Shown piece after piece: positions 28,383 to 61,712 of a stretch of 64,000 nt of DNA. The position numbers were made by a program, and so were the translations under genes. The stretch covers positions 358,394 through 422,393 of the forward strand of contig OY282360.1 in assembly GCA_958295675.1 (NCBI GenBank). The letters run 5' to 3'. The notes under the pieces are model-generated. The model ran no database searches. It had not been told where the DNA came from and worked only from the letters and a program-made list of their open reading frames with translations. The DNA is from Minisyncoccota bacterium (lineage in GTDB: Bacteria > Patescibacteriota > Minisyncoccia > Phycocordibacterales > JABAAK01). How positions within the stretch are numbered: the stretch's first letter is position 1; every line of letters starts with the position of its first letter.

Positions 28383-29432
28383 TTACGCAAGCGAATCCGA
28401 TCGTCTGTTCCTGAGATGCAGCAGAGCAATGTGGCGCACAAACTCATTCTCATCTTTGACAAGTTTTTCGAGTACTTCAATCGGTGTGTTCGGATGTTGA
28501 GCGACAAGAGATCTGATCAGCAAATCCGCATTGCCGGCAAACAATGTAAGTTGTTCTGCCGGTGTATTCGGGTTACAAATGGCAGAACGCAATACCAATT
28601 CATCTGTATCTTTGAGAAGGAATGTCAGAGATTCTAGTGGAATGTTCTCGTTTTCAGCAAGCAGTTTTCGCACAAACCAACTTTTATCTACAGAAAGTAA
28701 TGCGAATGCTCTCGTCAAAGTAATCTTACTTCTAGCTATTTCTGCCCGCACATCCTCATCAGGATCTGTAGCAAAACCTGTGAGTGCTTTTATTAACCGT
28801 TTCTTTCTCTTGGCAAGAGTCAACCGCACAGAATCAGCCTTATCCTTGGCGAGTCGCATGAATACTGGGATCGGCAGCTTCTTTCTCTTGGCAAGAGTAA
28901 ACCGTACATGGACATCTTCGTCTTCAGTGAGACGCATGAGTATTTGGATTGGCAGCTTCTTTCTCTTGGCAAGAATACACCGTACATACCAATCCTCATC
29001 CTCAGCAAGTCGCATGAGTACTTGGATCGGCAGCTTCTTTTTCTCGGCAAGAATACGCCGTACATGTACATACCAATCCCCACTCTCAGCAAGTCGCATG
29101 AGTACTTGGATCGGCAGCTTCTTTCTCTCGGCAAGAATACACCGTACATACCAATCCTCATCCTCAGCAAGTCGCATGAGTACTTGGATCGGCAGCTTCT
29201 TTCTCTTGAGAATAGCACGCTGTACATAAAAATTCTCATCCTCAGCAAGTCGCATGAGTACTTCTTCCGGCAGATCCTCTCTCTCGGCAACAATATACCG
29301 TACATGCCAATTCTCATCCTCAGCAAGTCGAGCAAGTGTTTCTTGCGAAGATGTTATTTTGGCAAGAATATATCGCGGAAGAGTAGTAAGTATACCCAGA
29401 ACCCACAAACAGATTTCTTGGAATACATTCAT
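28383..29432 (-). CDS. LRV-repeat protein with N-terminal hydrophobic segment
   Basis: 349 aa. Seven or more LPIQVLMRLAEDEDWYVRCILAERKK repeats (26 aa). Confidence 0.6.
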   Translation of the reverse strand: MNVFQEICLWVLGILTTLPRYILAKITSSQETLARLAEDENWHVRYIVAEREDLPEEVLMRLAEDENFYVQRAILKRKKLPIQVLMRLAEDEDWYVRCILAERKKLPIQVLMRLAESGDWYVHVRRILAEKKKLPIQVLMRLAEDEDWYVRCILAKRKKLPIQILMRLTEDEDVHVRFTLAKRKKLPIPVFMRLAKDKADSVRLTLAKRKKRLIKALTGFATDPDEDVRAEIARSKITLTRAFALLSVDKSWFVRKLLAENENIPLESLTFLLKDTDELVLRSAICNPNTPAEQLTLFAGNADLLIRSLVAQHPNTPIEVLEKLVKDENEFVRHIALLHLRNRRSDSLA

Positions 29433-29641
29433 CCGAGTACCTCCTTCTTCGGTTCCTTTAGGATCAAAGACCCATCCTGATTCATAGTATTATATTTTAA
29501 GTGTATTGTCAATAAATAACTGAATATACTGATAGTATATTTTGTTTACAAATGGCAGAACGCAACACCACTTCAATGATCCAATTTCACTTGCCAATCT
29601 TCATCCTTCACAATGGTGTAATATATTTTCTAAAAAATGAA

Positions 29642-29664
29642 CCCCGAACATATAGTGTTCGGGG
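29642..29664. terminator. bidirectional hairpin terminator element, copy 4
   Basis: ccccgaaca-tata-gtgttcgggg. Confidence 0.5.
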
Positions 29665-29733
29665 TTTAGCGGAAACGCCGGTGAGTTCAGGTACGAATCA
29701 GGGTTTGCCTTTTATCAAGCAAGAACTGCACTT

Positions 29734-32103
29734 TTAGGAAACCGTCTGTCTTTTGAGATTCTCAACAGCCGTCTCTCGCACCCACGGATTCTTATCCTCC
29801 GCAAGCTTGGCAAGAACTTCTTTCGGTGTGTTCCGATGCTTGGCAACAGCCAACCGAATCCGCCAATACGCATCCTCAGCAAGTCGCACGAGTACTTCTA
29901 TGAGAACTTCCCTCGGTGTGTTCCGATGTTTGGTAACACTAAACCGCACCCACGCATTCTCATCCTCGGCAAGCTTGGTGAGAGCTTCTTTCGGTGTGTT
30001 CCGATGTTTGGTAACACTCAACCGCACCCACGCATTCTCATCCTCAGCAAGCTTGGTAAGAGCTTCTTTCGGTGTGTTCGGATGCTCGGCAACTTCCTGC
30101 CGCACCCACGCATTCTCATCCTCGGCAAGCTTGGTGAGAACTTCTTTCGGTGTGTTCCGCTGCTTAGCAACTTCCCGCCGCACCCACGGATTCTTATCCT
30201 CGGCAAGCATTTTAAGCACTTCCAAAGGTGTGTTTGGATTCATGGCGACACCTATTCGCACACCTGCATTCTCATCCTCGGCAAGCTTGGCAAGAATTTC
30301 TTTCGGTGTGTTCCGATGCTTAGCAACTTCCTGCCGCACCAACACATTTTCATCCTCAGCAAGTCGCATGAGTGCTTCTTCCGGTAAGTCCTTCCTCTTG
30401 GCAAGAGTCAACCGCACATCCAGATTTTTATTATCAGTAAGATGAATGAGATCTTCTTTCGGTGTGTCCCGATGTTTAGCAAAAGCCAACCAAACCCGCC
30501 AATTCTTATCCTCAGTAAGTCGCACGAGTGCTTCTTCCGGCAAGTCCTTCCTCTTGATAAGAGTAAGCTGCACATCCAGATTCTTATCCTCGGCAAGCTT
30601 GGTGAGAGCTTCTTTCGGTGTGTTCGGATGCTCGGCAACTTCCCGCCGAACCCGCCAATCCTTATCCTCAGCAAGTCGCACGAGTACTTCTTCCGGCAAG
30701 TCCTTCCTCTTGGGAAGAGTAAGCTGCACATCCAGATTCTTATCCTCGGCAAGTTTGATGAGAGCTTCTTTCGGTGTGTTCCGATGCTTAGCAACTTCCT
30801 GCCGCACCAACGCATTCTCATCCTCGGCAAGCTTGGTGAGAACTTCTTTTGATGCTTTCTTATACTTGGCAACAGCAAACCGAACCCGCCAATTCTTATC
30901 CTCAGCAAGTCGCACGAGTACTTCTTCCGGCAAGTCCTTCCTCTTGGGAAGAGTCAACCGCACATCCAGATTCTTATCCTCGGCAAGTTTGATGAGAGCT
31001 TCTTTCGGTGTGTTCCGATGATTAGCAACTTCCTGCCGCACCAACGCATTCTCATCCTCGGCAAGCTTGGTGAGAGCTTCTTTCGGTGTGTTCCGATGCT
31101 TGGCAACAGCCAACTGAATCCGCCAATCCTTATCCTCAGCAAGTCGCATGAGTGCTTCTTCCGGCAAGTCCTTCCTCTCGGTAAGAGTCAACCGCACATC
31201 CAGATTTTTATTACCAGTAAGATGAACGAGAGATTCTTTCGGTGTGTTCCGATGCTTGGCAACAGCCAACCGAACCCGCCAATTCTTATCCTTAGCAAGT
31301 CGCATGAGTGCTTCTTCCAGTAAGTCCTTCCTCCTGGTAAGAGCAAGCCGCACATCCAGATTTTTATCATCAGTAAAATGAACGAGAACTTTTCTCGGTG
31401 TGTTCCGATGCTTAGCAACTTCCTGCCGAACCCGCCAATCCTTATCCTCAGCAAGTCGCACGAGTACTTCTTCCGGCAAGTCCTTCCTCTTGGCAAGAGT
31501 CAACCGCACATTCTGTTTCTTATCCCCGGCAAGTTTGATGAGAGCTTCTTTCGGTGTGTTCGGATGCTCGGCAACTTCCCGCCGCCGCAGCCAATCCTTA
31601 TCTCCGGCAAGTTGCATGAGTACTTCTCTGAGAATTTCCCTCGGTGTGTTTCGATGTTTGGTAACACTCAACCGCACCCACGAATCCTTATCCCCGGCAA
31701 GTTTGATGAGAACTTCTCTCGGCGTGTTCCGATTCTTGGCAACTTCCCGCCGCACGGACCGATTCTTATCCTCGGCAAGTTTGATGAGAATTTCTCTCGG
31801 TGTGTTCCGATGCTCGGCAACAACCGACCGAACCGACCAATTCTCATCCTCAGCAAGTTTGATGAGAACTTCTTTTGGTGCGTTCCTATGCCTGGCAATT
31901 CTATCTCGCACAAACCAAAACGCATCTTCAGCAAGTCGCACGAGTACTTCTTCCGGCAGATCCTTTCTCTCGGCAAGAGTCAACCGCACCAGAAAATCCT
32001 TATCCCCGGCAAGTCGCATGAGTTTTTCATGAGATGTACAAGGGTCCTTGGCGGCTTTCAATCGTGCCACCACATTTCTCTTTCTCCTGCTCTTTCTACT
32101 CAT
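29734..32103 (-). CDS. giant LRV-repeat protein (~27 repeats)
   Basis: 789 aa of LAEDKNWRVRQEVAKHRNTPKEALIK-type 26-aa units. K/R-rich N-terminus. Confidence 0.65.
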   Translation of the reverse strand: MSRKSRRKRNVVARLKAAKDPCTSHEKLMRLAGDKDFLVRLTLAERKDLPEEVLVRLAEDAFWFVRDRIARHRNAPKEVLIKLAEDENWSVRSVVAEHRNTPREILIKLAEDKNRSVRREVAKNRNTPREVLIKLAGDKDSWVRLSVTKHRNTPREILREVLMQLAGDKDWLRRREVAEHPNTPKEALIKLAGDKKQNVRLTLAKRKDLPEEVLVRLAEDKDWRVRQEVAKHRNTPRKVLVHFTDDKNLDVRLALTRRKDLLEEALMRLAKDKNWRVRLAVAKHRNTPKESLVHLTGNKNLDVRLTLTERKDLPEEALMRLAEDKDWRIQLAVAKHRNTPKEALTKLAEDENALVRQEVANHRNTPKEALIKLAEDKNLDVRLTLPKRKDLPEEVLVRLAEDKNWRVRFAVAKYKKASKEVLTKLAEDENALVRQEVAKHRNTPKEALIKLAEDKNLDVQLTLPKRKDLPEEVLVRLAEDKDWRVRREVAEHPNTPKEALTKLAEDKNLDVQLTLIKRKDLPEEALVRLTEDKNWRVWLAFAKHRDTPKEDLIHLTDNKNLDVRLTLAKRKDLPEEALMRLAEDENVLVRQEVAKHRNTPKEILAKLAEDENAGVRIGVAMNPNTPLEVLKMLAEDKNPWVRREVAKQRNTPKEVLTKLAEDENAWVRQEVAEHPNTPKEALTKLAEDENAWVRLSVTKHRNTPKEALTKLAEDENAWVRFSVTKHRNTPREVLIEVLVRLAEDAYWRIRLAVAKHRNTPKEVLAKLAEDKNPWVRETAVENLKRQTVS

Positions 32104-32246
32104 GTATAATCCTCCCTTGGTTCAGTTTCTTCAGATAAGAGGCATTCTCTCATCACCGAGAATAGTATACTATGTTTTCTAAAAAAATAAACCTTAAAAA
32201 GATTATATAAAAAAATTCCACCAGCATTTCTACTAGTGGAGTGAGT

Positions 32247-32963
32247 TTAGAGCACTTCCGTAAAGAACCGTCTTTCAAACCAAGAAAGGATAGCCTGCAC
32301 CACTTGATCTCGTTCCAATGTACCGTCCAGGAATGCTTTTACAACTTTTATGAAAGCCAGAAACCAGAAATCCATTTCTACATCTTCGTTGGAAAGTAGG
32401 TCAGATGCTCCAATCTCTAGTTCTTGGACACTTGAGTAGACAGCTTGCCACGAATCTTTTGCATCTTCTTCAAATGTTTTAAGCATGGCAAGCCGTGCTT
32501 TGGTAAAATTCACTTCAAACTCAAGAAACATCACTCTAAGAGTAGAGGCAGAAATGCTCCTTTCTTTTTCGTAGTATTTTACAATTTCAAGAAGAAGTAT
32601 TAGTTCCTTCGGTATGTTTGAGTTTCTGTAGAGAAATTCAAGCACAATGGAGGACACCTTTTTCTCGTCTTTGGCAAGTTGCATCAGAATTTCAAAAGAT
32701 GCTTTTGGATTCTTGCCGACATTTCTTCGCACATACCAGTGCGTGTCTCCAGCGAGTTGCGTAAGAGATTTCACCGGCATGCTTGGGTGCTCAGCGGCAG
32801 CTGCCCGCACCCGCCAATCCTTGTCTCTGGCAAGCCGTACGAGAGATGCTACTGGTGTATCCGGATTCCTGGCTGCACGGCGTTGCACACGCCAATCATC
32901 GTCTTTTGCATACGCAATGAGCATTTTTTCCGGAACAGGTTCTCGCCGCGCAAAAACAAGCAT
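32247..32963 (-). CDS. LRV-repeat protein with unique C-terminal domain
   Basis: 238 aa: four LRV units then about 130 aa of non-repeat helical sequence. Confidence 0.6.
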   Translation of the reverse strand: MLVFARREPVPEKMLIAYAKDDDWRVQRRAARNPDTPVASLVRLARDKDWRVRAAAAEHPSMPVKSLTQLAGDTHWYVRRNVGKNPKASFEILMQLAKDEKKVSSIVLEFLYRNSNIPKELILLLEIVKYYEKERSISASTLRVMFLEFEVNFTKARLAMLKTFEEDAKDSWQAVYSSVQELEIGASDLLSNEDVEMDFWFLAFIKVVKAFLDGTLERDQVVQAILSWFERRFFTEVL

Positions 32964-33040
32964 TCAATACCTCCTTTTAGGTTTGTTTAGCATGAGACAA
33001 AATCTCCAAAGTAAGTATACCACTTTAGGATACATTTTTC

Positions 33041-33063
33041 AAAAAACAAACCCCAAACACATA
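33041..33063. terminator. bidirectional hairpin terminator element, copy 5
   Basis: ccccaaacac-ata-gtgtttgagg. Confidence 0.45.
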
Positions 33064-33083
33064 GTGTTTGAGGTTCTGATGAC

Positions 33084-33618
33084 TCAGGAAGAAGTCGATG
33101 ATGTATTCAGTTCTGCTCGTGCAGTAAGTCCTGTCCGCACAACCAAATTCTCATCCTCAGCAAGCAGCGTGGCTACCTCAGTCGGCAAAGTCATTTCTCC
33201 TGGCAAGAGCGGACCGTACCCGCCGATCCTTATCCTTAGCAAGCCGCATGGCTGCCTCAGTCGGCAAGTCATCTCTCCTGGCAAGAGCGGACCGTACCCG
33301 CCGATTCTTATCCTCAGCAAGCCACATGGCTACATTAGCCGGCAGGTCATCTCTCATGGCAAGAGAACGCCGAACAGACGCTTTTGCATCCTCAGCAAGC
33401 CGCATGGCTACTTCAGCAGGCAACTGCTTTCTCTTAGTAAGAAGAAGCCGTACACGCACCCCTCCATTCTCTGCAAGACGAACAAGTCTTTTTGATGAAG
33501 ATGATCTTACGGCAAGAATCTGCCACACAAGATCAAGCATCATTTTTCGGAACACATGCATGACCCAAATACCTCCTTTTAGGTTTGTTTGGAATGAGAG
33601 AAAACCTCTAAATAACAA
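33084..33618 (-). pseudogene. LRV-repeat gene split by a frameshift
   Basis: ORF 33178..33618 (LRV units) and ORF 33084..33320 (continuing ...LPTEVATLLAEDENLVVR) are in different frames. Confidence 0.45.
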
Positions 33619-36673: not shown

Positions 36674-36745
36674 TCACTATATTCCGCGGTAGCTCAGCGG
36701 TAGAGCAACCGGCTGTTAACCGGTAGGTCGCAGGTTCGAATCCCG
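36674..36745 (+). tRNA. tRNA-Asn (anticodon GUU)
   Basis: Acceptor tccgcgg/ccgcgga, anticodon loop cuGUUaa, T-loop ttcgaat. Confidence 0.8.
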
Positions 36746-36851
36746 CCCGCGGAGCAATAACACAGATTTCACATTTTTTCAAAAAATGGTATATTATTTG
36801 TTAGAAAGGTTTCCTTTTCTGTTCATTTCAAACACACCAAAAGGAGGTTTT

Positions 36852-37139
36852 ATGAACCTACACCCACCACCGAAAATGGTTGGAATGCTGATACCACAAA
36901 ACCGTATGCTTCGGCTTTGGGAGAAGTTGAAGCAGTGTGCTGTGACGACCTTTCATCTCATCACACTCCGTAGGTGGATGCGGCCCGACGTTTACGTTGC
37001 TCGCAACTACAGCATACCACCGGAAGTGCTTGCACAACTGGCAAGGGATCCGGATGCGGTTACTCGGCAGATAGTTGCTCACCGCACCGTACCACCAGAA
37101 GTCCTTGCAAGATTGACGGACGATAAGGTTTCTCCCTGA
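36852..37139 (+). CDS. short LRV-type protein carrying the shared N-terminal module (MLRLWEKLKQ...ITLRR)
   Basis: ATG after AAGGAGG. Two IPPEVLAQLARDPDAVTRQIVAHRTVPPEVL units. Ends ...LTDDKVSP. Confidence 0.55.
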   Translation: MNLHPPPKMVGMLIPQNRMLRLWEKLKQCAVTTFHLITLRRWMRPDVYVARNYSIPPEVLAQLARDPDAVTRQIVAHRTVPPEVLARLTDDKVSP

Positions 37140-37149
37140 GTCGTCAGAA

Positions 37150-37172
37150 CCCCAAACACACAGTGTTTGGGG
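37150..37172. terminator. bidirectional hairpin terminator element, copy 6
   Basis: ccccaaacac-aca-gtgtttgggg plus T-tract. Confidence 0.55.
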
Positions 37173-37276
37173 TTTATTTTTTAAATAACTTAAAAATTAT
37201 AGTTAAAAGATGTATACTTGGGTGGGAGAAAATCCCTAACCACCCCTAACCGAGTCGAAATGAAGGAGGTCCGATA

Positions 37277-37777
37277 ATGGGCATAGCCCTGCTAGAAAAT
37301 TTGTTGCAGAAGCAAGTTTTCAAAGAAATAGACTCAAACGCAACATCAGTTGAAGTGCTTGCATCATTGGTGTCACTGACATTAGATGAGTTCATTGCGA
37401 CCAGAGACCCGAACACATCGAAAAAGACGCTTGCACGACTTGCAAACAGTGACAATCTGCTCGTTCAGATACTTGTTGCCAAACATCCGAACACATCACC
37501 AGAAACTCTCAAGCAGTTTGTTGAGATGGTGAAACAGGGCAAACAGTTTGGAACTGAAATTCAGTTTCTTCTGCAAATACCTCTCATCCAAAATCAAAAT
37601 ACGCCTTCGGAAGCACTCGCGTTTTTTGCCGAGAGTGAGAACGAGGATGTACGGTGTGCCGTTGCCAGAAATCCGAACACACCGCCGGAAGTTCTCCTCA
37701 AACTTAAGGAGGATAGGAGTTTACTCGTGCAGCAGTATGCCGAAGAGAACCCAAACACACCGTTGACTTCTCCCTGA
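37277..37777 (+). CDS. LRV-repeat protein
   Basis: 166 aa. GAAGGAGG RBS. ...DVRCAVARNPNTPPEVLLKL.... Confidence 0.65.
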   Translation: MGIALLENLLQKQVFKEIDSNATSVEVLASLVSLTLDEFIATRDPNTSKKTLARLANSDNLLVQILVAKHPNTSPETLKQFVEMVKQGKQFGTEIQFLLQIPLIQNQNTPSEALAFFAESENEDVRCAVARNPNTPPEVLLKLKEDRSLLVQQYAEENPNTPLTSP

Positions 37778-37786
37778 GTCGTCAGA

Positions 37787-37809
37787 ACCCCAAACACACA
37801 GTGTTCGGG
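37787..37809. terminator. bidirectional hairpin terminator element, copy 7
   Basis: ccccaaacacacagtgttcgggg. Confidence 0.55.
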
Positions 37810-37827
37810 GTTTATTTTTTAAATAAC

Positions 37828-37855
37828 TTGAAAATTATAGTTTAAATGGTATCTT
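37828..37855 (+). promoter_or_regulatory. cassette promoter TTGAAA / 16 nt / TGgTATCTT (representative; repeated before each family-A gene)
   Basis: Same sequence near 38160, 39090, 40100, 42780 and 43980. Confidence 0.4.
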
Positions 37856-37862
37856 GTTTGTT

Positions 37863-37880
37863 AGAAAGGTTTCCCTTTCT
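37863..37880 (+). promoter_or_regulatory. conserved 5'-UTR stem-loop agaaagg-tttc-cctttct (representative)
   Basis: Present in every family-A leader and in the leader of 36852..37139. Confidence 0.4.
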
Positions 37881-37913
37881 GTTCGTTTCAAACACACCAA
37901 AAGGAGGTGTTTT

Positions 37914-38090
37914 GTGAATCAAAAGATGTACCGGATCCGTGAGAAGATACAGCACACTGATGATGATTTAGATCTCAGCAACCTCACCTCCGCGAAAGGA
38001 CTCACCTTGCCGAGGAAGATTGGTGGTGATCTGGTTCTCAGCGGTCTCAGAATACCACCGGAAGAAGTCTTTAAGTCCTTGCAAGATTGA
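37914..38090 (+). CDS. family-A mini-gene (single 22-aa repeat)
   Basis: GTG after AGGAGG. VNQKMYRIREKIQHTDDDLDLSNLTSAKGLTLPRKIGGDLVLSGLRIPPEEVFKSLQD. Confidence 0.45.
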   Translation: MNQKMYRIREKIQHTDDDLDLSNLTSAKGLTLPRKIGGDLVLSGLRIPPEEVFKSLQD

Positions 38091-38123
38091 TGGACGATAA
38101 GGTTTCTCCCTGAGTCGTCAGAA

Positions 38124-38146
38124 CCCCAAACATATAGTGTTTGGGG
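38124..38146. terminator. bidirectional hairpin terminator element, copy 8
   Basis: ccccaaacatatagtgtttgggg. Confidence 0.5.
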
Positions 38147-38251
38147 TTTGTTTTTAAACAATTTGAAAACATAGTTAAAAAAAATGGTATATTATTTGTT
38201 GGAAAGATTCCCCTTTCTGTTTATTTCAAACACACCAAAAGGAGGTGTTTT

Positions 38252-38968
38252 GTGGATCCACACATGTCTCGGCTCCGTAGGAATATACAGCACGTTGATG
38301 ATAATTTAGATCTCAGCAATCTCACCTCCGCGAAAGGACTCACGCTACCTGAAGAGATTGTTGGTGATCTGAATCTCAGCGGTCTTGTCTCCGCTGAGGG
38401 ACTCACCCTGCCGAGGAAGATTGGTGGTGATCTGCGGCTCAACGGTCTCACCTCCGCTGAAGGACTCACGCTACCTGAAGAGATTGGTGGTCATCTGGAT
38501 CTCAGAGATCTCACCTCCGCGAAAGGACTCACGCTACCTGAAGAGATTGGTGGCAGTCTGGTTCTCAGCGGTCTCACCTCCGCTGAGGGACTCACCCTGC
38601 CGAGGAAAATTGGTGGTGGTCTGTTTCTCAGCGGTCTCAAGTCCGCGAAAGGACTCACGCTACCTGAAGAGATTGGTGGTGATCTGTGGCTCATCGGTCT
38701 CACCTCCGCGAAAGGACTCACGCTACCTGAAGAGATTAGTGGCAGTCTGTGGCTCGACAATCTCACCTCCGCGAAAGGACTCACGCTACCTGAAGAGATT
38801 AGTGGCAGTCTGTGGCTCGACAATCTCACCTCCGCGAAAGGACTCACCCTGCCGAGGAAAATTGGTGGCATTTTGTTTCTCAGCGGACTCACCTCCGCTG
38901 AGGGACTTACACTCCCTGAAGAGATTGGTGGTTATCTGTGGATCGGAGGAAGGAAGGTACAGCATTAG
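38252..38968 (+). CDS. family-A 22-aa tandem-repeat protein (about 10 repeats)
   Basis: GTG after AGGAGG. VDPHMSRLRRNIQHVDDNLDLSNL then LTSAKGLTLPEEIGGxLxLxGL units. Confidence 0.65.
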   Translation: MDPHMSRLRRNIQHVDDNLDLSNLTSAKGLTLPEEIVGDLNLSGLVSAEGLTLPRKIGGDLRLNGLTSAEGLTLPEEIGGHLDLRDLTSAKGLTLPEEIGGSLVLSGLTSAEGLTLPRKIGGGLFLSGLKSAKGLTLPEEIGGDLWLIGLTSAKGLTLPEEISGSLWLDNLTSAKGLTLPEEISGSLWLDNLTSAKGLTLPRKIGGILFLSGLTSAEGLTLPEEIGGYLWIGGRKVQH

Positions 38969-39042
38969 TGTTGCTATAAGCAACCCACCACCGGAAGTCC
39001 TTGCAACATTGATGGACGATAAGGTTTCTCCCTGAATCGTCA

Positions 39043-39065
39043 GAACCCCGAACATTATGTGTTCG
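39043..39065. terminator. bidirectional hairpin terminator element, copy 9
   Basis: ccccgaacattatgtgttcgggg. Confidence 0.5.
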
Positions 39066-39171
39066 GGGTTTATTTTTTAAATAACTTGAAAATTATAGTT
39101 TAAATGGTATCTTGTTTGTTAGAAAGGTTTCCCTTTCTGTTCGTTTCAAACACACCAAAAGGAGGTGTTTT

Positions 39172-40095
39172 GTGAATCAAACTGGCTCCGTGATGCAACA
39201 CACTGATGATTTAGATCTCAGCAACCTCACCTCCGCGAAAGGACTTACACTCCCTGAAGAGATTACTGGCACTCTGGATCTCAGCGGTCTCACCTCCGCT
39301 GAGGAACTCACGCTACCTGAAGAGATTGGTGGTAATCTGGATCTCAGAGGTCTCACCTCCGCTGAGGGACTCACCCTGCCGAGGAAGATTGGTGGTGCTC
39401 TGTTGCTCGACGGTCTCACCTCCGCGAAAGGACTCACGCTACCTGAAGAGATTGGTGGTGATCTGTGGCTCATCGGTCTCACCTCCGCGAAAGGACTCAC
39501 GCTACCTGAAGAGATTGGTGGTCATCTGGTTCTCAACGGTCTCACCTCCGCGAAAGGACTCACCCTGCCGAGGAAAATTGGTGGCATTTTGTTTCTCATC
39601 GGTCTCACTTTCGCTGAAGAACTCACCCTGCCGAGGAAGATTAGCGGTAGTCTGTATCTCAACGGTCTCACCTCCGCTAAGGGACTTACGCTACCTGAAG
39701 AGATTGGTGGTCATCTGATTCTCAGCGGTCTCACTTCCGCGAAAGGACTCACCCTACCGAGGAAGATTGGTGGTGCTCTGGTTCTCAGCGGTCTCACCTC
39801 CACTGAAGGACTCACCCTGCCGAAGAAGATTGGTGGTGATCTGGATCTCAACGGTCTCAAGTCCGCTGAAGAACTCACACTACCTGAAGAGATTGGTGGC
39901 AGTCTGTTTCTCGACGGTCTCAGTTCCGCTGAGGGACTCACGCTACCTGAAGAGATTGGTGGCATTCTGGTTCTCAACGGTCTCACCTCCACGAAAGGAC
40001 TCACCCTGCCGAGGAAGATTGGTGGTCATCTGGATCTCAGAGGTCAGAACCCCGAACATTATGTGTTCGGGGTTTATTTTTTTAAACAACTTTAA
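39172..40095 (+). CDS. family-A 22-aa tandem-repeat protein (about 13 repeats); 3' tail deleted, ORF reads through the terminator hairpin
   Basis: GTG after AGGAGG. The repeat is fused directly to tcagaaccccgaaca...; ends FGVYFFKQL. Confidence 0.55.
   Translation: MNQTGSVMQHTDDLDLSNLTSAKGLTLPEEITGTLDLSGLTSAEELTLPEEIGGNLDLRGLTSAEGLTLPRKIGGALLLDGLTSAKGLTLPEEIGGDLWLIGLTSAKGLTLPEEIGGHLVLNGLTSAKGLTLPRKIGGILFLIGLTFAEELTLPRKISGSLYLNGLTSAKGLTLPEEIGGHLILSGLTSAKGLTLPRKIGGALVLSGLTSTEGLTLPKKIGGDLDLNGLKSAEELTLPEEIGGSLFLDGLSSAEGLTLPEEIGGILVLNGLTSTKGLTLPRKIGGHLDLRGQNPEHYVFGVYFFKQL
40047..40069. terminator. bidirectional hairpin terminator element, copy 10
   Basis: ccccgaacattatgtgttcgggg. Confidence 0.5.
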
Positions 40096-40179
40096 AATTA
40101 TAGTTAAAAATGGTACCTTGTTTGGTAGGAAAGGATTTCCCTTTCTGTTCATTTCAAACACACCAAAAGGAGGTGTTTT

Positions 40180-42579
40180 GTGAATCAAAAGATGTACCGG
40201 ATCCGTGAGAAGATACAGCACACTGATGATGATGATTTAGATCTCAGCAATCTCACCTCCGCGAAAGGACTCACTCTGCCGAGGAAGATTGGTGGCAGTC
40301 TGTTTCTCAGAGGTCTCACCTCCGCGAAAGAACTCACGCTACCTGAAGAGATTGGTGGTGATCTGTGGCTCGACGGTCTCACCTCCGCGAAAGGACTCAC
40401 GCTACCGAAAGAAATCGGCGGTGTTCTGAATCTCAACGGACTCACCTCCGCTGAAGGATTCACGCTACCTGAAGAGATTGGTGGTGGTCTGTGGCTCAAC
40501 GGTTTCGATCCCGCGAAAGGATTCACCCTGCCGAGGAAGATTGGTGGTGATCTGCGGCTCGACGGTCTCACCTCCGCGAAAGGACTCACGCTACCTGAAG
40601 AGATTGGTGGTCTGTTTCTCAGAGGTCTCACCTCCGCAAAAGGACTCACACTACCTGAAGAGATTGGTGGTGATCTGGATCTCACCGGTCTCACTTCCGC
40701 GAAAGGACTCACTCTGCCGAGGAAGATTGGTGGTGATCTGTGGCTCAACAGACTCACTTCCACGAAAGGACTCACGCTACCTGAAGAGATTGGTATTGGT
40801 GGTGATCTGCGGCTCGACGGTCTCACCTCCGCGAAAGGACTCACCCTGCCGAGGAAGATTGGTGGTCTGGATCTCAGCGGTCTCACTTCCGCGAAAGGAC
40901 TCACGCTACCTGAAGAGATTGGTGATGATCTGTTGCTCGACAATCTCACTTCCGCGAAAGGACTCACGCTACCTGAAGAGATTGGTGGCAGTCTGGTTCT
41001 CAGAGGTCTTACCTCCGAGAAAGGACTCACCCTGCCGAGGAAGATTGGTGGCAGTCTGTTTCTCAGAGGTCTCGCCTCCGCGAAAGAACTCACGCTACCT
41101 GAAGAGATTGGTGGTGATCTGGATCTCAGCGGTCTCACTTTCGCGAAAGAACTCACCCTGCCGAGGAAGATTGGTGGTGAACTGGATCTTAGCGGTCTCA
41201 CCTCCGCGAAAGAACTCACGCTACCTGAAGAGATTGATATTGGTGGTCATCTGGATCTCAGAGGTCTCACCTCCGCTGAAGAACTCACCCTGCCGAGGAA
41301 GATTGGTGGTCATTTGCGGCTCGACGATCTCAAGTCCGCTGAGGGACTTACACTCCCTGAAGAGATTGGTGGTGATCTGCGGCTCGACGGTCTCACCTCC
41401 GCAAAAGGACTCACGCTACCTGAAGAGATTGGTGGTCGTCTGGATTTCAGCGGTCTCACTTCCGCTGAAGAACTCACGCTACCTGAAGAGATTGCTGGTG
41501 ATCTGGTTCTCAGAGGTCTCACCTCCGCGAAAGGACTCACGCTACCTGAAGAGATTGGTGGTGATCTGGTTCTCATCGGTCTCACCTCCACGAAAGGACT
41601 CACCTTGCCGAGGAAGATTGGTGGTGATCTGGTTCTCAGAGGTCTCACCTCCGCGAAAGGACTCACGCTACCTGAAGAGATTGGTGGTGATCTGGATATC
41701 AGCGGTCTCACCTCCGCGAAAGGACTCACGCTACCTGAAGAGATTGGTGGTGATCTGGTTCTCATCGGTCTCACCTCCGCTGAAGAACTCACACTACCTG
41801 AAGAGATTGGTGGTAGTCTACATCTCAGCGGTCTTACCTCCGCGAAAGGACTCACCCTGCCGAGGAAGATTGGTGGTGGTCTGTATCTCATCGGTCTCAC
41901 CTCCGCGAAAGGACTCACCCTGCCGAGGAAGATTGGTGATCATCTGTGGCTCGACGGTCTCACCTCCGCGAAAAAACTCACGCTACCTGAAGAGATTGGT
42001 GGTCTGTTTCTCAGCGGTCTCACTTCCGCTAAAGAGATAAGTGGCAGTCTGTATCTCAACGGACTCACTTCAGCGGAAGGACTCATCCTACCGAGGAAGA
42101 TTGGTGGTCATCTGGTTCTCAGCGGTCTCACCTCCGCTGAAGAACTCACACTACCTGAAGAGATTGGTGGTGATTTGGATCTCAGCGGTCTCACCTCCGC
42201 GAAAGGACTCATACTACCGGAAGAGATTGGTGGTGATTTGATTCTCAGCGGTCTCACTTCCGCGAAAGGACTCACGCTACCTAAAGAGATTGGTGGTCAT
42301 CTGGATCTCAGCGGTCTCACCTCCACGAAAGGACTCACCTTAGCGAGGAAGATTGGTGGTGAACTGGATCTTAGCGGTCTCACCTCCGCGAAAGAACTCA
42401 CGCTACCTGAAGAGATTGATATTGGTGGTCATCTGGATCTCAGAGGTCTCACCTCCGCGAAAGGACTCACTCTGCCGAGGAAGATTGGTGGTGATCTGCT
42501 TCTCAGCGGTTATTATCCCATGCTTCTTTCTTTTTCTCTTCATTCTCAGCATCTATTTCCTCCTGCCGAGGAAAATTAG
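40180..42579 (+). CDS. family-A giant 22-aa tandem-repeat protein (about 35 repeats), interrupted near the 3' end
   Basis: 799 aa in frame 1. A non-repeat ~52-nt segment at about 42512-42565 replaces 24 nt of one repeat, causing a +1 shift. The repeat frame resumes and ends at 42706 (...LKSLQD). Confidence 0.55.
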   Translation: MNQKMYRIREKIQHTDDDDLDLSNLTSAKGLTLPRKIGGSLFLRGLTSAKELTLPEEIGGDLWLDGLTSAKGLTLPKEIGGVLNLNGLTSAEGFTLPEEIGGGLWLNGFDPAKGFTLPRKIGGDLRLDGLTSAKGLTLPEEIGGLFLRGLTSAKGLTLPEEIGGDLDLTGLTSAKGLTLPRKIGGDLWLNRLTSTKGLTLPEEIGIGGDLRLDGLTSAKGLTLPRKIGGLDLSGLTSAKGLTLPEEIGDDLLLDNLTSAKGLTLPEEIGGSLVLRGLTSEKGLTLPRKIGGSLFLRGLASAKELTLPEEIGGDLDLSGLTFAKELTLPRKIGGELDLSGLTSAKELTLPEEIDIGGHLDLRGLTSAEELTLPRKIGGHLRLDDLKSAEGLTLPEEIGGDLRLDGLTSAKGLTLPEEIGGRLDFSGLTSAEELTLPEEIAGDLVLRGLTSAKGLTLPEEIGGDLVLIGLTSTKGLTLPRKIGGDLVLRGLTSAKGLTLPEEIGGDLDISGLTSAKGLTLPEEIGGDLVLIGLTSAEELTLPEEIGGSLHLSGLTSAKGLTLPRKIGGGLYLIGLTSAKGLTLPRKIGDHLWLDGLTSAKKLTLPEEIGGLFLSGLTSAKEISGSLYLNGLTSAEGLILPRKIGGHLVLSGLTSAEELTLPEEIGGDLDLSGLTSAKGLILPEEIGGDLILSGLTSAKGLTLPKEIGGHLDLSGLTSTKGLTLARKIGGELDLSGLTSAKELTLPEEIDIGGHLDLRGLTSAKGLTLPRKIGGDLLLSGYYPMLLSFSLHSQHLFPPAEEN

Positions 42580-42739
42580 TGGTAGTCTGTTTCTCAGCGG
42601 TCTCACTTCCGCGAAAGGACTCACCCTACCTGAAGAGATTGGTGGTGATTTGGTTCTCAGCGGTCTCACCATACCACCGGAAATCCTTAAGTCCTTGCAA
42701 GATTGATGGACGATAAGGTTTCTCCCTGAGTCGTCAGAA

Positions 42740-42762
42740 CTCCGAACACATAGTGTTCGGGG
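42740..42762. terminator. bidirectional hairpin terminator element, copy 11
   Basis: ctccgaacacatagtgttcgggg. Confidence 0.5.
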
Positions 42763-42863
42763 TTTATTTTTAAATAACTTGAAAATATAGTTAAAAAATA
42801 GTACATTGTTTGTTAGAAGGGTTTCCCTTTTTGTTCACTTCAAACACACCAAAAGGAGATTTT

Positions 42864-43904
42864 ATGAATGTGGGGACACCACCAACAAAACTTACAGCGG
42901 AAGTGATTGCAGGGTGGGGGGCACCAGACAACTGGATGCTCCGGCTTTGGAAGAAGTTGAAGCAGCGTGCTGTGATCTTTTGTCTCATCACACTCCGTAG
43001 GGAGATGCAGTACATTGATGGCGATATGGATCTCAGCGGTCTCACCTCCGCTGAGGGACTCACCCTGCCGAGGAAGATTGGTGGTTGTCTGGATCTCAGC
43101 GGTCTCACCTCCGCTGAGGGACTCACCCTGCCGGAGGAAATCGGTGATTGGCTGGATCTCAGAGGTCTCACCTCCGCTGAGGGACTCACCCTGCCGGAGG
43201 AAATCGGTAATTGGCTGGATCTCAGCGGTCTCACCTCCGCTGAGGGACTCACGCTACCGAAAGAGATTACTGGCAATCTGTTTCTCAGCGGTCTCACCTC
43301 CGCGAAAGGACTCACCCTGCCGAGGAAGATTGGTGGCGGTCTGGATCTCAGCGGTCTCACCTCCGCTGAGGGACTCACCCTGCCGAGGAAAATTGGTGGT
43401 GGTCTGTTTCTCAGCGGTCTCACCTCCGCGAAAGGACTCACCCTGCCGAGGAAGATTGGTGGTTTTCTGTGGTTCAGCGGTCTCACCTCCGCTGAGGGAA
43501 TCACCTGGCCGGAAGAGATTGGTGGTGATCTGGATCTCAGCGGTCTCACTTCCGCGAAAGGACTCACGCTACCGAAAGAGATTACTGGCAATCTGTTTCT
43601 CAGCGGTCTCACTTCCGCGAAAGGACTCACGCTACCGAAAGAGATTACTGGCAATCTGTTTCTCAGCGGTCTCACTTCCGCGAAAGGACTCACGCTACCT
43701 GAAGAGGTTGGTGGTGATCTGGATCTCAGAGGTCTCACTTCCGCTGAAGAACTCACACTACCTGAAGAGATTGGTGGCGATCTGGTTCTCAACGGTCTCA
43801 CCTCCGCGAAAGGACTTACGCTACCGAGGAAGATTGGTGGTGATCTGGTTCTCAGCGGTCTCAGAATACCACCGGAAGAAGTCTTTAAGTCCTTGCAAGA
43901 TTGA
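42864..43904 (+). CDS. family-A 22-aa tandem-repeat protein with LRV-type N-terminal module (MNVGTPP...MLRLWKKLKQRAV...ITLRR)
   Basis: ATG after AAAGGAG. N-terminal 55 aa are homologous to 36852..37139, then about 13 of the 22-aa repeats. Confidence 0.65.
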   Translation: MNVGTPPTKLTAEVIAGWGAPDNWMLRLWKKLKQRAVIFCLITLRREMQYIDGDMDLSGLTSAEGLTLPRKIGGCLDLSGLTSAEGLTLPEEIGDWLDLRGLTSAEGLTLPEEIGNWLDLSGLTSAEGLTLPKEITGNLFLSGLTSAKGLTLPRKIGGGLDLSGLTSAEGLTLPRKIGGGLFLSGLTSAKGLTLPRKIGGFLWFSGLTSAEGITWPEEIGGDLDLSGLTSAKGLTLPKEITGNLFLSGLTSAKGLTLPKEITGNLFLSGLTSAKGLTLPEEVGGDLDLRGLTSAEELTLPEEIGGDLVLNGLTSAKGLTLPRKIGGDLVLSGLRIPPEEVFKSLQD

Positions 43905-43937
43905 TGGACGATAAGGTTTCTCCCTGAGTCGTCAGAA

Positions 43938-43960
43938 CCCCAAACATATAGTGTTTGGGG
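43938..43960. terminator. bidirectional hairpin terminator element, copy 12
   Basis: ccccaaacatatagtgtttgggg. Confidence 0.5.
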
Positions 43961-44065
43961 TTTGTTTTTAAACAATTTGAAAACATAGTTAAAAAAAATG
44001 GTATATTATTTGTTGGAAAGATTCCCCTTTCTGTTTATTTCAAACACACCAAAAGGAGGTGTTTT

Positions 44066-45265
44066 GTGGATCCACACATGTCTCGGCTCCGTAGGAATAT
44101 ACAGCACGTTGATGATAATTTAGATCTCAGCAATCTCACCTCCGCGAAAGGACTCACGCTACCTGAAGAGATTGTTGGTGATCTGAATCTCAGCGGTCTT
44201 GTCTCCGCTGAGGGACTCACCCTGCCGAGGAAGATTGGTGGTGATCTGCGGCTCAACGGTCTCACCTCCGCTGAAGGACTCACGCTACCTGAAGAGATTG
44301 GCGGTGATCTGAATCTCATCGGTCTCACCTCCGCTGAAGGACTTACGCTACCTGAAGAGATTGGTGGTGGTCTGAATTTCAGCAATCTCACCTCCGCTGA
44401 GGGACTCACCCTGCCAAGGAAGATTGGTAGTCATCTGCGGCTCGACGATCTCAAGTCCGCTGAGGGACTTACACTCCCTGAAGAGATTGGTAGTGATCTG
44501 CTTCTCAGCAGACTCACCTCCGCGAAAGGACTCACCCTGCCGAGGAAGATTGGCCGTAATCTGTGGCTCAACGGTCTCACTTCCGCTGAGGGACTCACGC
44601 TACCTGAAGAGATTGGTGGTCATCTGGTTCTGAGCGGTCTCACTTCCGCGAAAGAACTCATCCTGCCGAGGAAGATTGGTGGTAAACTGGATCTCAGCGG
44701 TCTCACTTCCGCTGAAGAACTCACGCTACCTGAAGAGATTGGTGGTGATCTGTTGCTCAACGGTCTCACCTCCGCTGAGGGACTCACCCTGCCAAGGAAG
44801 ATTGGTGGTTCTCTGTGGCTCAACGGTCTTACCTCTGCGAAAGAACTCACCCTGCCGAGGAAGATTGGTGGTGGTCTGTATCTCCGCGATCTCACCTCTA
44901 CTGAAGGACTCACGCTACCTGAAGAGATTGGTAGCAGTTTGTTTCTCAGCGGTCTCACCTCCGCTGAAGAACTCACGCTACCTGAAGAGATTGGTGGTGC
45001 TCTGGATCTCAGCGGTCTCACCTCCGCGAAAGGACTCACCCTGCCGAGGAAGATTGGTGGTGATCTGCGGCTCAGCGGACTCACCTCCGCGAAAGGACTC
45101 ACGCTACCTGAAGAGATTGGCCGTGATCTGTGGCTCAGAGGTCTCACCTCCACTGAAGGACTCACGCTACCTGAAGAGATTGGCCGTAATCTGGTTCTCA
45201 GCAGTTTCACCTCCGCGAAAGGACTCACCCTGCCGAGGAAGAGAGGAAGATTGGTGGTTTTCTGA
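44066..45265 (+). CDS. family-A 22-aa tandem-repeat protein (about 17 repeats)
   Basis: GTG after AGGAGG. The first ~350 nt (from the terminator through the start) are near-identical to the 38126-38420 region. Confidence 0.65.
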   Translation: MDPHMSRLRRNIQHVDDNLDLSNLTSAKGLTLPEEIVGDLNLSGLVSAEGLTLPRKIGGDLRLNGLTSAEGLTLPEEIGGDLNLIGLTSAEGLTLPEEIGGGLNFSNLTSAEGLTLPRKIGSHLRLDDLKSAEGLTLPEEIGSDLLLSRLTSAKGLTLPRKIGRNLWLNGLTSAEGLTLPEEIGGHLVLSGLTSAKELILPRKIGGKLDLSGLTSAEELTLPEEIGGDLLLNGLTSAEGLTLPRKIGGSLWLNGLTSAKELTLPRKIGGGLYLRDLTSTEGLTLPEEIGSSLFLSGLTSAEELTLPEEIGGALDLSGLTSAKGLTLPRKIGGDLRLSGLTSAKGLTLPEEIGRDLWLRGLTSTEGLTLPEEIGRNLVLSSFTSAKGLTLPRKRGRLVVF

Positions 45266-45331
45266 TGCTCAAAAATCGCATCTTCCGCGTAAGATTGACG
45301 GACGATAAGGTTTCTTCCTGAGTCGTCAGAA

Positions 45332-45354
45332 CCCCGAACACACAGTGTTCGGGG
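45332..45354. terminator. bidirectional hairpin terminator element, copy 13
   Basis: ccccgaacacacagtgttcgggg. Serves the convergent genes 44066..45265 and 45408..46244. Confidence 0.5.
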
Positions 45355-51327: not shown

Positions 51328-52190
51328 TTACCTAAATTGAACCTGATCAGGATACTGTTTCTTCAGTTCTTCTTTCTCGTTGTCTGGCAGTGCTTGACTT
51401 GCAAATATAGAGTTTCCAATTTTTATAGGCCAGTTGGTGATACCTTGAGTGGATGTGAGTCTATTAAGGTACAGATTATCACCAATCTCTTTCGGCATAG
51501 TGATCTCAGTATCTTCAGTATCTATGGATGTGAGACTGATAAAATTCAGACTACCACCAACCACCTCCGGCATAGTGAATTTAGTATCTATGGATGTGAT
51601 TCTCCTGAGATCCAGACCACCAACTCCTTCGGCATGGTAATCTCAGTATCTATAGATGTGAGATTGCCGAGAGCCAGAGTACCGCCAACCTCCTCCGGCA
51701 GCGTGAGTCCCTCAGCGGAGGTGAGATCACCGAGATCCAAGTCACCATAATGATACCGTATAGTACCGGAAAGCGCCTCTTCTTCAGTCAAAGAAATACG
51801 ATTGGAAGTGGTGCCAAACGCAAGCGCGAGATCCTGTTTCTTCTCTTCATCGCTTCTCCATCTTTTCATCATCTCTCTTCGTCTTTCTTCTTCCTCATAA
51901 TTCCTACTTTTCAAGTGCTGACCTATGCCATACAACACCCAGTATTCCCATTTCGTCAGGTTCTTCTTGTCCTCCATCTTCCGCTCTATATCGTCCAGAC
52001 GCTCATTAAACGGCTGTTTGTACAATACCACCACATCACGCAATTCTTCCGCAAGGTTATCAAACTTTCTAACTGTTTCCTTTACCGCATCAGATTCCAT
52101 TCCTTCTTTGACAAGCACAGAGAGACACAATTCTCGCAATCCGTCCAATACTTTCAATTGTTTCTGTAGTTCTTCGCATATATCCGCCAT
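51328..52190 (-). pseudogene. family-B repeat-protein gene disrupted by partial duplication/frameshift
   Basis: N-terminal ORF 51588..52211 (MADICEELQKQL...) and C-terminal ORF 51328..51573 (...ITNWPIKIG...KKQYPDQVQFR) are in different frames. The IDTEITMPKE segment is duplicated at the junction. Confidence 0.5.
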
Positions 52191-52280
52191 GCTGACGGTA
52201 GTGTACCCCATATATCAAATGCCGTACTCTTTCTTGTGTGAAGATGTTTTTTAGTTTTAATTGTATTCCATTTCATTATT

Positions 52281-53321
52281 TTATCCATAATGAACCTGAC
52301 CCGGATACCGTTTCTCCAGCTCTTCTCTCTCGTTGTCTGGCAATGCTTTGTTTGCATATATAACACCTCCAATCTTTGATGGCCAGTAAGTGATACCTTG
52401 GATAGTGTTAAGACCATATATATCTAAACCATTACCAATCTCTTCAGGTAGCGTGAGTCCTTTCGCGGAGGTGAGACCTCTGAGATCCAGATGACCTCCG
52501 ATTTTTTTTGGCAGTCTGAGTCCTTCAACGAAGGTGAGACTACTGAGATGTAGACTACCATTAATCTCTTCTGGCAGGGTAAATCCCTCAGCGGAGGTAA
52601 GATTGTCAAGCCACAGGCTACCACCAATATTCCTCGGCAAAGTGAGTCCCTTAGCGGAACTGAGACCGCCGAGATCTAGATGACCACCAATCTCCCTCGG
52701 CAGGATGAGTCCTTCAGCGGAGGTGAGTCTACTGAGATGTATACTACCACCAATATTCCTCGGCAAAGTGAGTCCCTTAGCGGAGGTGAGACTACTGAGA
52801 TGTAGACTACCACTAATCTCTTCTGGCAGAGTGAGTCCCTCAGCGAAAGTGATACCGTCAAGCCACAAATCACTACCAATCTCCCTCGGTAGGATGAGTT
52901 TCTCAGCGGACTTGAGACCGCCGAGATCCAGATGACCACCAATCTTCCTCGGCAAAGTGAGTCCCTTAGCGGAGGTGAGTCTGCCGAGATGTAGACTGCC
53001 ACTAATCTCTTCCGGCAGGGTGAATCCCTCAGCGGAAGTGAGACCGTCGAGCCACAGACTGCCGTTATGATACCGTATTTTTCCAGAAAGTGCTTCTTCT
53101 TCATTCACGGAAATACGATCAGGTGTGGTGTCAAACGCGCGCGCGAGATCCTGTTTCTTTTCTTCATCACTTCTCCTGTTCTCTGGCAAAACAAGATCTT
53201 GACCTATATTCTCTGGCAAAACAAGATCTATATCAGCATTTGGTTCATCATGTTCTGTTTTGGGTTTTCTGTATTTTCCGTCTAAAGGACCTGATTCCTT
53301 CATATGTGTATAATTTACCAT
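52281..53321 (-). CDS. family-B protein, N-terminally truncated variant (unique 45-aa N-terminus, about 11 repeats, conserved C-terminal module)
   Basis: ...RRSDEEKKQDLARAFDTTPDRISVNEEEALSGKIRYH then 22-aa repeats, ending GITYWPSKIGGVIYANKALPDNEREELEKRYPGQVHYG. Confidence 0.55.
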   Translation of the reverse strand: MVNYTHMKESGPLDGKYRKPKTEHDEPNADIDLVLPENIGQDLVLPENRRSDEEKKQDLARAFDTTPDRISVNEEEALSGKIRYHNGSLWLDGLTSAEGFTLPEEISGSLHLGRLTSAKGLTLPRKIGGHLDLGGLKSAEKLILPREIGSDLWLDGITFAEGLTLPEEISGSLHLSSLTSAKGLTLPRNIGGSIHLSRLTSAEGLILPREIGGHLDLGGLSSAKGLTLPRNIGGSLWLDNLTSAEGFTLPEEINGSLHLSSLTFVEGLRLPKKIGGHLDLRGLTSAKGLTLPEEIGNGLDIYGLNTIQGITYWPSKIGGVIYANKALPDNEREELEKRYPGQVHYG

Positions 53322-53370
53322 ACATATATATGGTAGATACGAATGTGGAAAAATTGATTATATCTATAGT

Positions 53371-54093
53371 TTACACATATTGAACCTGATCAGGATACTG
53401 TTTCTTCAGTTCTTCTTTCTCGTTGTCTGGCAGTGCTTGACTTACAATTATCTCGTGTCTAATTTTTATAGGCCAGTTGGTGATACCTTGAGTGGATGTG
53501 AGACCGCTGAGAACCAGACCACCACCAATCTTTCTCGGCAACTCAAGCCCTTCCGCGGAGATGAGAGCGGCGAGAAGCAGATGACCACCAATCTCTTCCG
53601 GCAATGTAACTCCTTTTGCGGAGGCGGTATCTTTAAGATATAATTCATCGTAATGATATCGTATGTTACCGGAAAGTGCTTCTTCTTCGGTCACGGAAAT
53701 ACGGTTAGGTGTGGTGTCAAATTCAATTGCGAGATCCTGTTTCTTCTCTTCATCGCTTCTCCATTTTTCTACAATTTCTTTTCGTCTTTTATCTTCTTCA
53801 TATTTAAGACGGCCCGGATACCAATCCACACCATACAACAGACGACATTCCCGTCTATCAAGTGGTTTCTTGTCCTCCATTTTCCGCTCTATATCGTCCA
53901 GACGCTCATTAAACGGCTGTCTGTAGAATACCGTAGCATCACGCAATTCTTCCGCCAGCGTATCAAACTCCCTAACCGCTTTCTTCGCCGCATCAGATTC
54001 CATTCCTTCTTTGACAAGCACAGAGAGACACGATTCCCGCAATCCGTCCAATACTTTCAGATCTTTCCGCAGTTCTTTGCATATATCTGCCAT
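53371..54093 (-). CDS. family-B protein (N-terminal ~150-aa helical domain + 2-3 repeats + C-terminal module)
   Basis: MADICKELRKDLKVLDGLRESCLSVLVKEGMESDAAKK ... QGITNWPIKI ... KKQYPDQVQYV. Confidence 0.65.
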   Translation of the reverse strand: MADICKELRKDLKVLDGLRESCLSVLVKEGMESDAAKKAVREFDTLAEELRDATVFYRQPFNERLDDIERKMEDKKPLDRRECRLLYGVDWYPGRLKYEEDKRRKEIVEKWRSDEEKKQDLAIEFDTTPNRISVTEEEALSGNIRYHYDELYLKDTASAKGVTLPEEIGGHLLLAALISAEGLELPRKIGGGLVLSGLTSTQGITNWPIKIRHEIIVSQALPDNEKEELKKQYPDQVQYV

Positions 54094-54160
54094 ACTGGAA
54101 AATAGTATACCCTATATACTAAACATTTCCTTTGGTTTGATTGTATTCCATTTCATTATT

Positions 54161-55636: not shown

Positions 55637-55662
55637 ACTGGAAAATAGTATAACACACAGGT

Positions 55663-60653: not shown

Positions 60654-60707
60654 TCATCAATAATAGAAACAAAGATAAAGATATTTTTATAGTATACTAC
60701 CCTCGGT

Positions 60708-61655: not shown

Positions 61656-61712
61656 TCATCAATAATAGAAACAAAGATAAAGAGATATTTTTTATACTAC
61701 ACTACTCTTTAT

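Follow-up and report, generated by a model that had tools for sequence, protein, structure and literature searches.

The repeat gene g5 appears to carry a recent biological indel that truncates the 3′ end of an LRR-type gene, a reading to which we assign a probability of roughly 0.55. The gene is the fifth of seven tandem cassettes (g1 to g7) found at 36.8–45.3 kb of the window, the 64,000-nt stretch of DNA that was analyzed. It is an array of 63-nt/21-aa units with the encoded consensus LTLPEEIGGDLxLSGLTSAKG, and its third unit from the 3′ end is interrupted by a 53-nt segment that moves the repeat from frame 0 to frame +1. A frameshifting 3′-end indel is an ordinary event. The practical use of the finding is an annotation caveat: g5 is to be read as a 799-aa, 3′-truncated gene, and the indel of one paralog is of little weight alone. 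More noteworthy is the cluster in which it lies: its LRR-type cassettes consist of arrays alone, share identical leaders and terminators, and are hypervariable at positions with a putative role in binding.

A 53-nt Replacement Shifts the Reading Frame of g5

The g5 coding sequence is made up of 36 intact 21-aa LRR-like units followed by 22 novel residues (YYPMLLSFSLHSQHLFPPAEEN), and at this length the label of a giant gene given in the initial annotation is overstated. The same annotation reported a non-repeat insertion with a net gain of 28 nt at about 42512–42565. The quoted string is present in the sequence and the net gain was borne out, with coordinates that need correction by 1–3 nt (Table 1). 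Each boundary of the insert is uncertain by 1 nt (a shared T on the left and a shared C on the right), so "52 replaces 24" and "53 replaces 25" both describe a net change of +28 nt. Beyond the 53-nt segment, the interrupted unit picks up again at CTGCCGAGG. The segment has a G+C content of 34% vs 53% for g5, is 77% pyrimidine, and is T-rich and of low complexity.

Table 1. Features of the g5 locus, in window coordinates
Feature	Position	Strand	Remarks
Cassette 5′ leader TTCAAACACACCAAAAGGAGG	40153–40179	+	Conserved; RBS GGAGG at 40169–40173
g5 coding sequence	40180–42579	+	GTG start, TAG stop; 799 aa; from ORF list, translation, and unit census
Cryptic SD-like GAGGA followed by TTG/GTG/GTG	42477–42493	+	Frame +1; possible 72-aa product; function speculative
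Unique 53-nt segment TTATTATCCCATGCTTCTTTCTTTTTCTCTTCATTCTCAGCATCTATTTCCTC	42510–42562	+	Replaces 25 nt (TCTCACCTCCGCGAAAGGACTCACC) of one unit; net +28 nt
Inverted repeat TTTCCTC-CTGCC-GAGGAAA	42556–42574	+	7 bp, spanning the right insert junction
Stranded 3′ remnant	42563–42706	+	Frame +1; from translation and alignment with g2/g6 tails
Intrinsic terminator	42737–42775	+	13-bp stem and T-tract; conserved across all cassettes

The regularity of the arrays was examined by a unit-spacing census, in which the distance between successive GLTSAKGLT anchors was recorded across the 11 arrays of the window (131 spacings). The great majority measured 63 nt (122 spacings), with four of 60 nt, three of 69 nt, one of 45 nt, and one of 154 nt (2 × 63 + 28) at the g5 insert. 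The g5 site is the single spacing that is not divisible by 3, and the other eight length variants all are. The arrays accept indels in whole codons only, with the g5 insert as the one within-array exception.

The lesion is located 92% along the gene. After the shift, frame 0 runs into a TAG codon at 42577–42579, where GAG GAA AAU UAG is what a normal PRKISG unit gives in the wrong frame. Translation also bore out the earlier claim that the repeat continues to 42706 in another frame: the remnant contains the rest of the interrupted unit, one more unit, and a final partial unit fused to the tail, reading LPRKISGSLFLSGLTSAKGLTLPEEIGGDLVLSGLTIPPEILKSLQD* in frame +1 and ending with the tail IPPEILKSLQD and a TGA at 42704–42706. 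No stops or additional frameshifts were found in this remnant, and alignment of the g5 tail with the g2/g6 tail revealed a few substitutions and one frame-preserving indel of 3 nt as the sole differences. The shift is therefore young relative to the divergence of the tails.

Predicted Product of the Truncated Gene

We propose that a complex indel would have placed 53 nt of foreign or scrambled sequence where 25 nt had been, a type of scar that illegitimate recombination, template switching, or patchy gene conversion could leave in a highly recombinogenic array. Translation would then exit the repeat frame, gain 22 unrelated residues, and end at 42579, and the product would lack the last two-plus units and the short helical tail, amounting to the last tenth of the protein. 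Since neither the promoter, RBS, and start nor the 36 in-frame units are affected, the gene most likely yields an LRR protein of 799 aa that ends in a disordered C-terminal stub. An AlphaFold (AF2) model of the C-terminal 169 residues of truncated g5 is confident in the solenoid as far as ...GGDLLLSG, with pLDDT values below 50 in the 22 new residues. Judging from the models, the 38-unit solenoid is likely shortened by two units and lacks a small C-terminal cap.

Relative to the intact paralogs g2 and g6, which end in IPPEEVFKSLQD, the frame of g5 is disrupted (net +28 nt, stop at 42579). There is no sign of further decay, the leader, RBS, start, and 36 units being intact and the remnant clean. 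Recent pseudogenization, one of the readings offered in the initial annotation, is viable as far as a recent mutational disruption goes. The term itself is too strong, and "3′ truncation" fits better, because the lesion falls at 92% of the gene, the 36 upstream units retain intact signals, and three sister cassettes are similarly lesioned. The g5 gene is likely a truncated allele rather than a dead gene or a null, and the shortened protein is presumably still made and tolerated.

Naturally truncated LRR surface or effector genes have a precedent in the premature-stop alleles of Listeria inlA. The likeness lies in a 3′-proximal frameshift or nonsense lesion in an LRR gene, most of whose repeat domain can still be translated. 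The inlA alleles lose a known cell-wall anchor and have a known phenotype, whereas g5 loses two units and a 12-residue tail, in an allele seen once.

Sister Cassettes Carry Independent 3′-End Lesions

Each cassette of the cluster has the same leader (an identical 21-mer) and the same 3′ tail module with a strong terminator. The first, g1, encodes a small LRV-repeat protein (PF01816), and the common cassette tail is derived from an LRV repeat, with a reading frame that differs (two frames) between cassettes. Independent 3′-end lesions are present in four of the six arrays (g3, g4, g5, and g7), all within the last one to three units, and the long upstream arrays of the lesion-bearing cassettes remain in frame. 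In g3, the array is joined out of frame to the LRV-like tail (38939–38968). The tail of g4 has been lost and its array runs directly into the terminator hairpin (40036–40053), with a GTC shared at the junction. In g7, an 8-nt tandem duplication (GAGGAAGA|GAGGAAGA; 45235–45250) shifts the frame five codons before a stop. The lesions in g3, g4, and g7 are of classical mutational types (slippage and microhomology), clearly biological in kind.

This bears on the suggestion of the initial annotation that the interruption is a sequencing or assembly error, which remains viable, with the evidence leaning to a real, recent lesion rather than an artefact. According to this alternative, the true gene would be intact through 42706 and the 53 nt would derive from a low-quality or chimeric read in a low-coverage MAG consensus; we consider it appreciably less probable than a genuine indel. 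Tandem 63-nt arrays are difficult to assemble, but the contig keeps apart exact repeats as long as 478 and 437 nt, an argument for long, accurate reads, and such reads typically err by 1-nt homopolymer indels rather than by 53-nt substitutions. The insert is unique, of low complexity, and matchless in the collections searched, and its 3′ 24 nt look like a degraded copy of a unit (19/24), as an error-laden read would. Its two junctions, however, are in register within a single unit, unlike a chimeric join. The downstream remnant is pristine and in frame, as an artefact would leave it, but lesions of clearly biological type occur in the neighboring cassettes. A Pfam scan of ten non-repeat genes of the window gave essentially full-length domain matches, 8 of the 10 with a clear family assignment; indels are therefore not a general problem of the assembly, which also speaks against an error at g5.

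Origin of the Insert and Recombination in the Family

Against the indel favored here stands the failure to find a donor of the 53 nt. No second copy of the insert exists in the window at up to 3 mismatches, and comparison of the insert with the window by blastn-short and Smith–Waterman alignment on both strands returned nothing exceeding the shuffled background. A 17-nt match at 32554 was rejected as a chance occurrence within an unrelated gene. Searches for a donor in GTDB species genomes, viral contigs, plasmids, and phages gave none, or chance-level matches only, and a check for template switching off the opposite strand of neighboring DNA yielded no significant match to the insert. Features of an insertion sequence or MITE were likewise not found, the insert being single-copy in the window and absent from the collections searched. 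Such an identity was rejected: 25 nt were replaced instead of a target being duplicated, and the only inverted repeat is the 7-bp one shared with the flank.

Two weak resemblances emerged within the locus. Nucleotides 17–39 of the insert resemble the cassette leader (19/22, p 0.004–0.013, post hoc and with shuffles restricted to leaders), and nucleotides 29–51 resemble the unit segment TTGATTCTCAGCGGTCTCACTTCC, which encodes LILSGLTS (19/24 with two 1-nt gaps, p ~0.006, post hoc). The two resemblances overlap, and therefore at most one of them is meaningful.

Active exchange and recombination are visible in the family. An exact 478-nt duplication makes the g2 end/g3 head identical to the g6 end/g7 head, and a second exact duplication in the family spans 437 nt. 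Within g5 itself, an exact intragenic duplication of 115 nt ends 52 nt before the insert, and g5 shares 598 nt at 87% identity with the gene at 54161–55666.

Such exchange is also the background for the unlikely possibility that insert-bearing and insert-free alleles coexist in the population, with the assembly showing one of them and the C-terminus switching stochastically. Unequal recombination between the units on either side could remove the lesion and bring back the frame: these flanking units are ~85–93% identical to other units, recent duplication and conversion are abundant in the family, and the arrays differ in length by whole units and by whole codons, which indicates that unit-level recombination occurs. 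This would be ordinary recombination rather than a programmed switch, however, and dedicated switching machinery or a simple-sequence tract is absent at the site. The locus resembles contingency loci in that the frameshift falls in a gene whose protein family is variable and probably interaction-related. In contrast to simple-sequence contingency loci, the g5 shift comes from a complex 53-for-25 replacement, with no short tandem tract (T5 at most). In the region 42480–42600, no simple-sequence tract was found, the longest homopolymer being T5, and TRF gave only the 63-nt array.

Recoding and Internal Initiation

The initial annotation had also raised programmed frameshifting or phase variation. 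This found no support, as no slippery site, simple-sequence tract, invertible or mobile-element features, or known RNA motif was detected, and the g5 site is most likely not a recoding or phase-variation site. In its specific form, the proposal is that recoding restores the conserved C-terminus, either by a +1 shift at AAU-UAG (42574–42579) or by a 58-nt hop from CTC at 42502–42504 to CTC at 42560–42562, and it is highly improbable; equally slight is the chance that the patch is a recoding site rather than a lesion and that a full-length protein with the IPPEILKSLQD end is still made. Were recoding to occur, the product would span the lesion into ...LPRKISGSLFLSG...IPPEILKSLQD.

A likeness to the prfB +1 frameshift and the T4 gene 60 bypass does exist, in that a ~50-nt non-coding patch lies inside a coding region and the downstream frame is kept. 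A +1 shift anywhere in 42344–42576 would rejoin that intact frame, but there is no known shifty heptamer, the AAU codon is unable to re-pair at +1, and reading the PRKISG unit in the wrong frame yields the UAG by chance. The CUU-UGA with an SD at 3 nt that characterizes prfB is lacking at the g5 site, where GAGGA lies 1 nt from the AAU codon. For a hop, there are matching CTC codons on both sides of the insert, and a weak stem of 5 bp (42496–42509) lies over the would-be take-off site; the CTC match is uninformative because CTC is the commonest codon of the unit, and the codon that follows it is AGC, not a stop. T4 gene 60, by comparison, has a stop after its take-off codon and a strong take-off hairpin. 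The local RNA fold is unremarkable (z −1.75), Rfam covariance models gave no match at E ≤ 1 over 42400–42700, and a promoter/terminator scan at the insert detected no promoter-like site. In a milder version, the cluster might be a cassette system in which 3′-end lesions and unit-level recombination toggle C-termini on and off.

Internal initiation offers another way of using the shifted frame. The +1 frame stays open from 42353 onward, the insert is preceded by GTG codons and an SD-like motif (Table 1), and it reads as hydrophobic; a membrane-anchored or secreted 72-aa mini-LRR protein could on this basis be made from 42488–42706, an idea we regard as very doubtful. In this product, the insert in frame +1 would serve as a 25-residue hydrophobic N-terminus (VICFSAVIIPCFFLFLFILSIYFLL) behind GAGGA-N6-GTG. 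The SD/GTG motif belongs to every PRKIGG unit and is not site-specific, because it occurs 17 times in the window, and a hydrophobic translation is expected of any T-rich sequence. Furthermore, the promoter scan found no promoter-like site near the insert, and no such product was present among the 120 family proteins listed. Taken together, the exotic readings of the site have little chance of being correct.

Repeat Family, Predicted Fold, and Genomic Setting

The encoded repeat has the hallmarks of an LRR-type protein. Across 120 21-aa units, L at positions 2, 8, 10, 18, and 20 and I at position 14 form a nearly invariant skeleton, and most of the variability falls at positions 17, 19, and 21, the x residues of xLxLx, a distribution like that of LRR binding faces. 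The predicted structure is a curved solenoid with one β-strand per unit. In the AlphaFold model of the intact paralog g6, the array is confident (pLDDT above 90) and the tail forms a short helix of moderate confidence. The LRR-type fold and the variable xLxLx positions therefore make the products plausible binding proteins rather than junk DNA.

Comparison of the 21-aa repeat with Pfam, including the LRR clan, gave no true match. Matches to Glutaredoxin2_C and Thr_synth_N were rejected as spurious summed scores with no stretch passing alone. Database searches recovered 556 relatives of the repeat protein at E < 1e-5, and the source names among the matches listed were all "hypothetical protein." The family seems to be confined to Patescibacteria, and a literature search found nothing specific on this repeat in Patescibacteria/CPR. 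The closest LRR relatives in kind are short bacterial LRR proteins, namely Yersinia YopM, Leptospira LIC11098, and the LRR domains of IpaH/SspH. The g5-family repeat differs from these in being undetected by Pfam LRR models and in having no E3-ligase or secretion domain.

A second subfamily is encoded at 51.6–55.7 kb (− strand) and 59.1–62.6 kb (+ strand) and carries an N-terminal domain together with the end typical of the family, "...EK..LEKRYPG...". In contrast, the g1 to g7 cassettes are without the family's usual N-terminal domain and "...EK..LR.KYP.L" end, and terminate instead in the LRV-repeat-derived fragment. The cassette leader 20-mer had two unrelated chance matches only in GTDB genomes, and the unique 30-mer from the right flank of the g5 insert and the cassette 3′ module were absent from the JGI metagenomes searched. 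Neither these searches nor those of GTDB species genomes and protein databases turned up a second strain or an ortholog sharing the g5 site. The two nearest relatives, with 76–78% identity in a neighboring protein, have the GH130 neighborhood and do not have the repeat cluster. Names carried by some homologs of the GH130 protein and of the repeat protein place this bacterial chromosome among Patescibacteria/CPR. The remodeled 3′ ends of four of the six arrays are suggestive of rapid turnover, driven by recombination, among proteins with a putative role in host interaction in an episymbiont lineage. The window also encodes PBP2, MreB, CysS, a Mur ligase, and GH130 enzymes.

Cassette architecture and the shared 3' module

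The seven tandem paralogous cassettes g1-g7 begin directly after a tRNA-Asn gene and have a leader/RBS module, a 3' tail and a terminator in common (see table). The 21-nt leader/RBS module is identical across all seven, and the number of LRR-like units per cassette ranges from 0 to 38. The cassettes lack both the N-terminal domain found in family members elsewhere and the canonical C-terminal end of those members. No such cluster occurs beside the GH130/nucleotidyl-transferase genes in L001 and L002, relatives with 76-78% identity in a neighboring protein. The terminator module is also carried by the gene at 37277-37777 and by one or more of the LRV genes, including one on the minus strand that ends near 33073-33095.

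The C-terminal tail shared by the cassettes derives from an LRV repeat, and the version in g1, the small LRV-repeat protein, reads PPEVLARLTDDKVSP up to its stop. A short AAGTCCTT-like insertion shifts the frame in g2, g5, and g6, and the same tail DNA therefore reads ...KSLQD before a TGA stop within GATTGATGG. A single 3' module is thus read in two frames. Beyond the frameshifting segment of g5, three independent 3'-end lesions were found in g3, g4, and g7. Lesions are thus present in four of the six arrays, in each case within the last one to three units.

Coordinates of features in and around the LRR-like cassettes
Feature	Position	Strand	Remark
tRNA-Asn	36683-36755
Cassettes g1-g7	36827-45341
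Shared C-terminal tail	37092-37139, 38060-38090, 42670-42706, 43874-43904
g3 lesion	38939-38968		array/LRV-tail junction out of frame
g4 lesion	40036-40053		tail deletion; array fused to terminator hairpin
g7 lesion	45235-45250		8-nt tandem duplication
Antisense ORFs across arrays	40185-41219, 41310-41918, 42791-43975	-
478-nt exact duplication	38010-38487 = 43824-44301		LRR-like family
437-nt exact duplication	53584-54020 = 55127-55563		LRR-like family
115-nt exact duplication	41162-41276 = 42344-42458		LRR-like family
Large LRV/HEAT-like genes	28383-33495	-	78-nt units
Example, 789 aa	29734-32103	-	PF01816, E 1e-120
Second LRR-like subfamily	51588-55666	-	same repeat
Second LRR-like subfamily	59145-62564	+	same repeat
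66-nt tandem duplication	61905-62037		inside gene 61713-62564 (second subfamily)

Repeat variation and gene calling

Three exact duplications, both between and within LRR-like family members, indicate that segments were duplicated, or gene conversion took place, very recently. Amino-acid variability in all arrays (e.g., 40180-42509) is concentrated at unit positions 17, 19, and 21, the xLxLx positions. Entropy there is 2.3-3.1 bits, whereas the Leu positions stay below 0.3, a distribution that fits a putative diversifying binding surface.

Opposite the arrays, the antisense strand likewise stays open over hundreds of codons, and one antisense ORF (394 aa) exceeds g6 in length. A search of 5.8 billion proteins recovered other proteins from the same contig but not the products of g5 and g6. 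These genes may therefore have been mis-called or skipped by gene callers.

The second subfamily has an N-terminal domain of ~140 aa (MADICEELRK...) and closes with the canonical end GITNWPSKIGG...EKEELEKRYPGQV.
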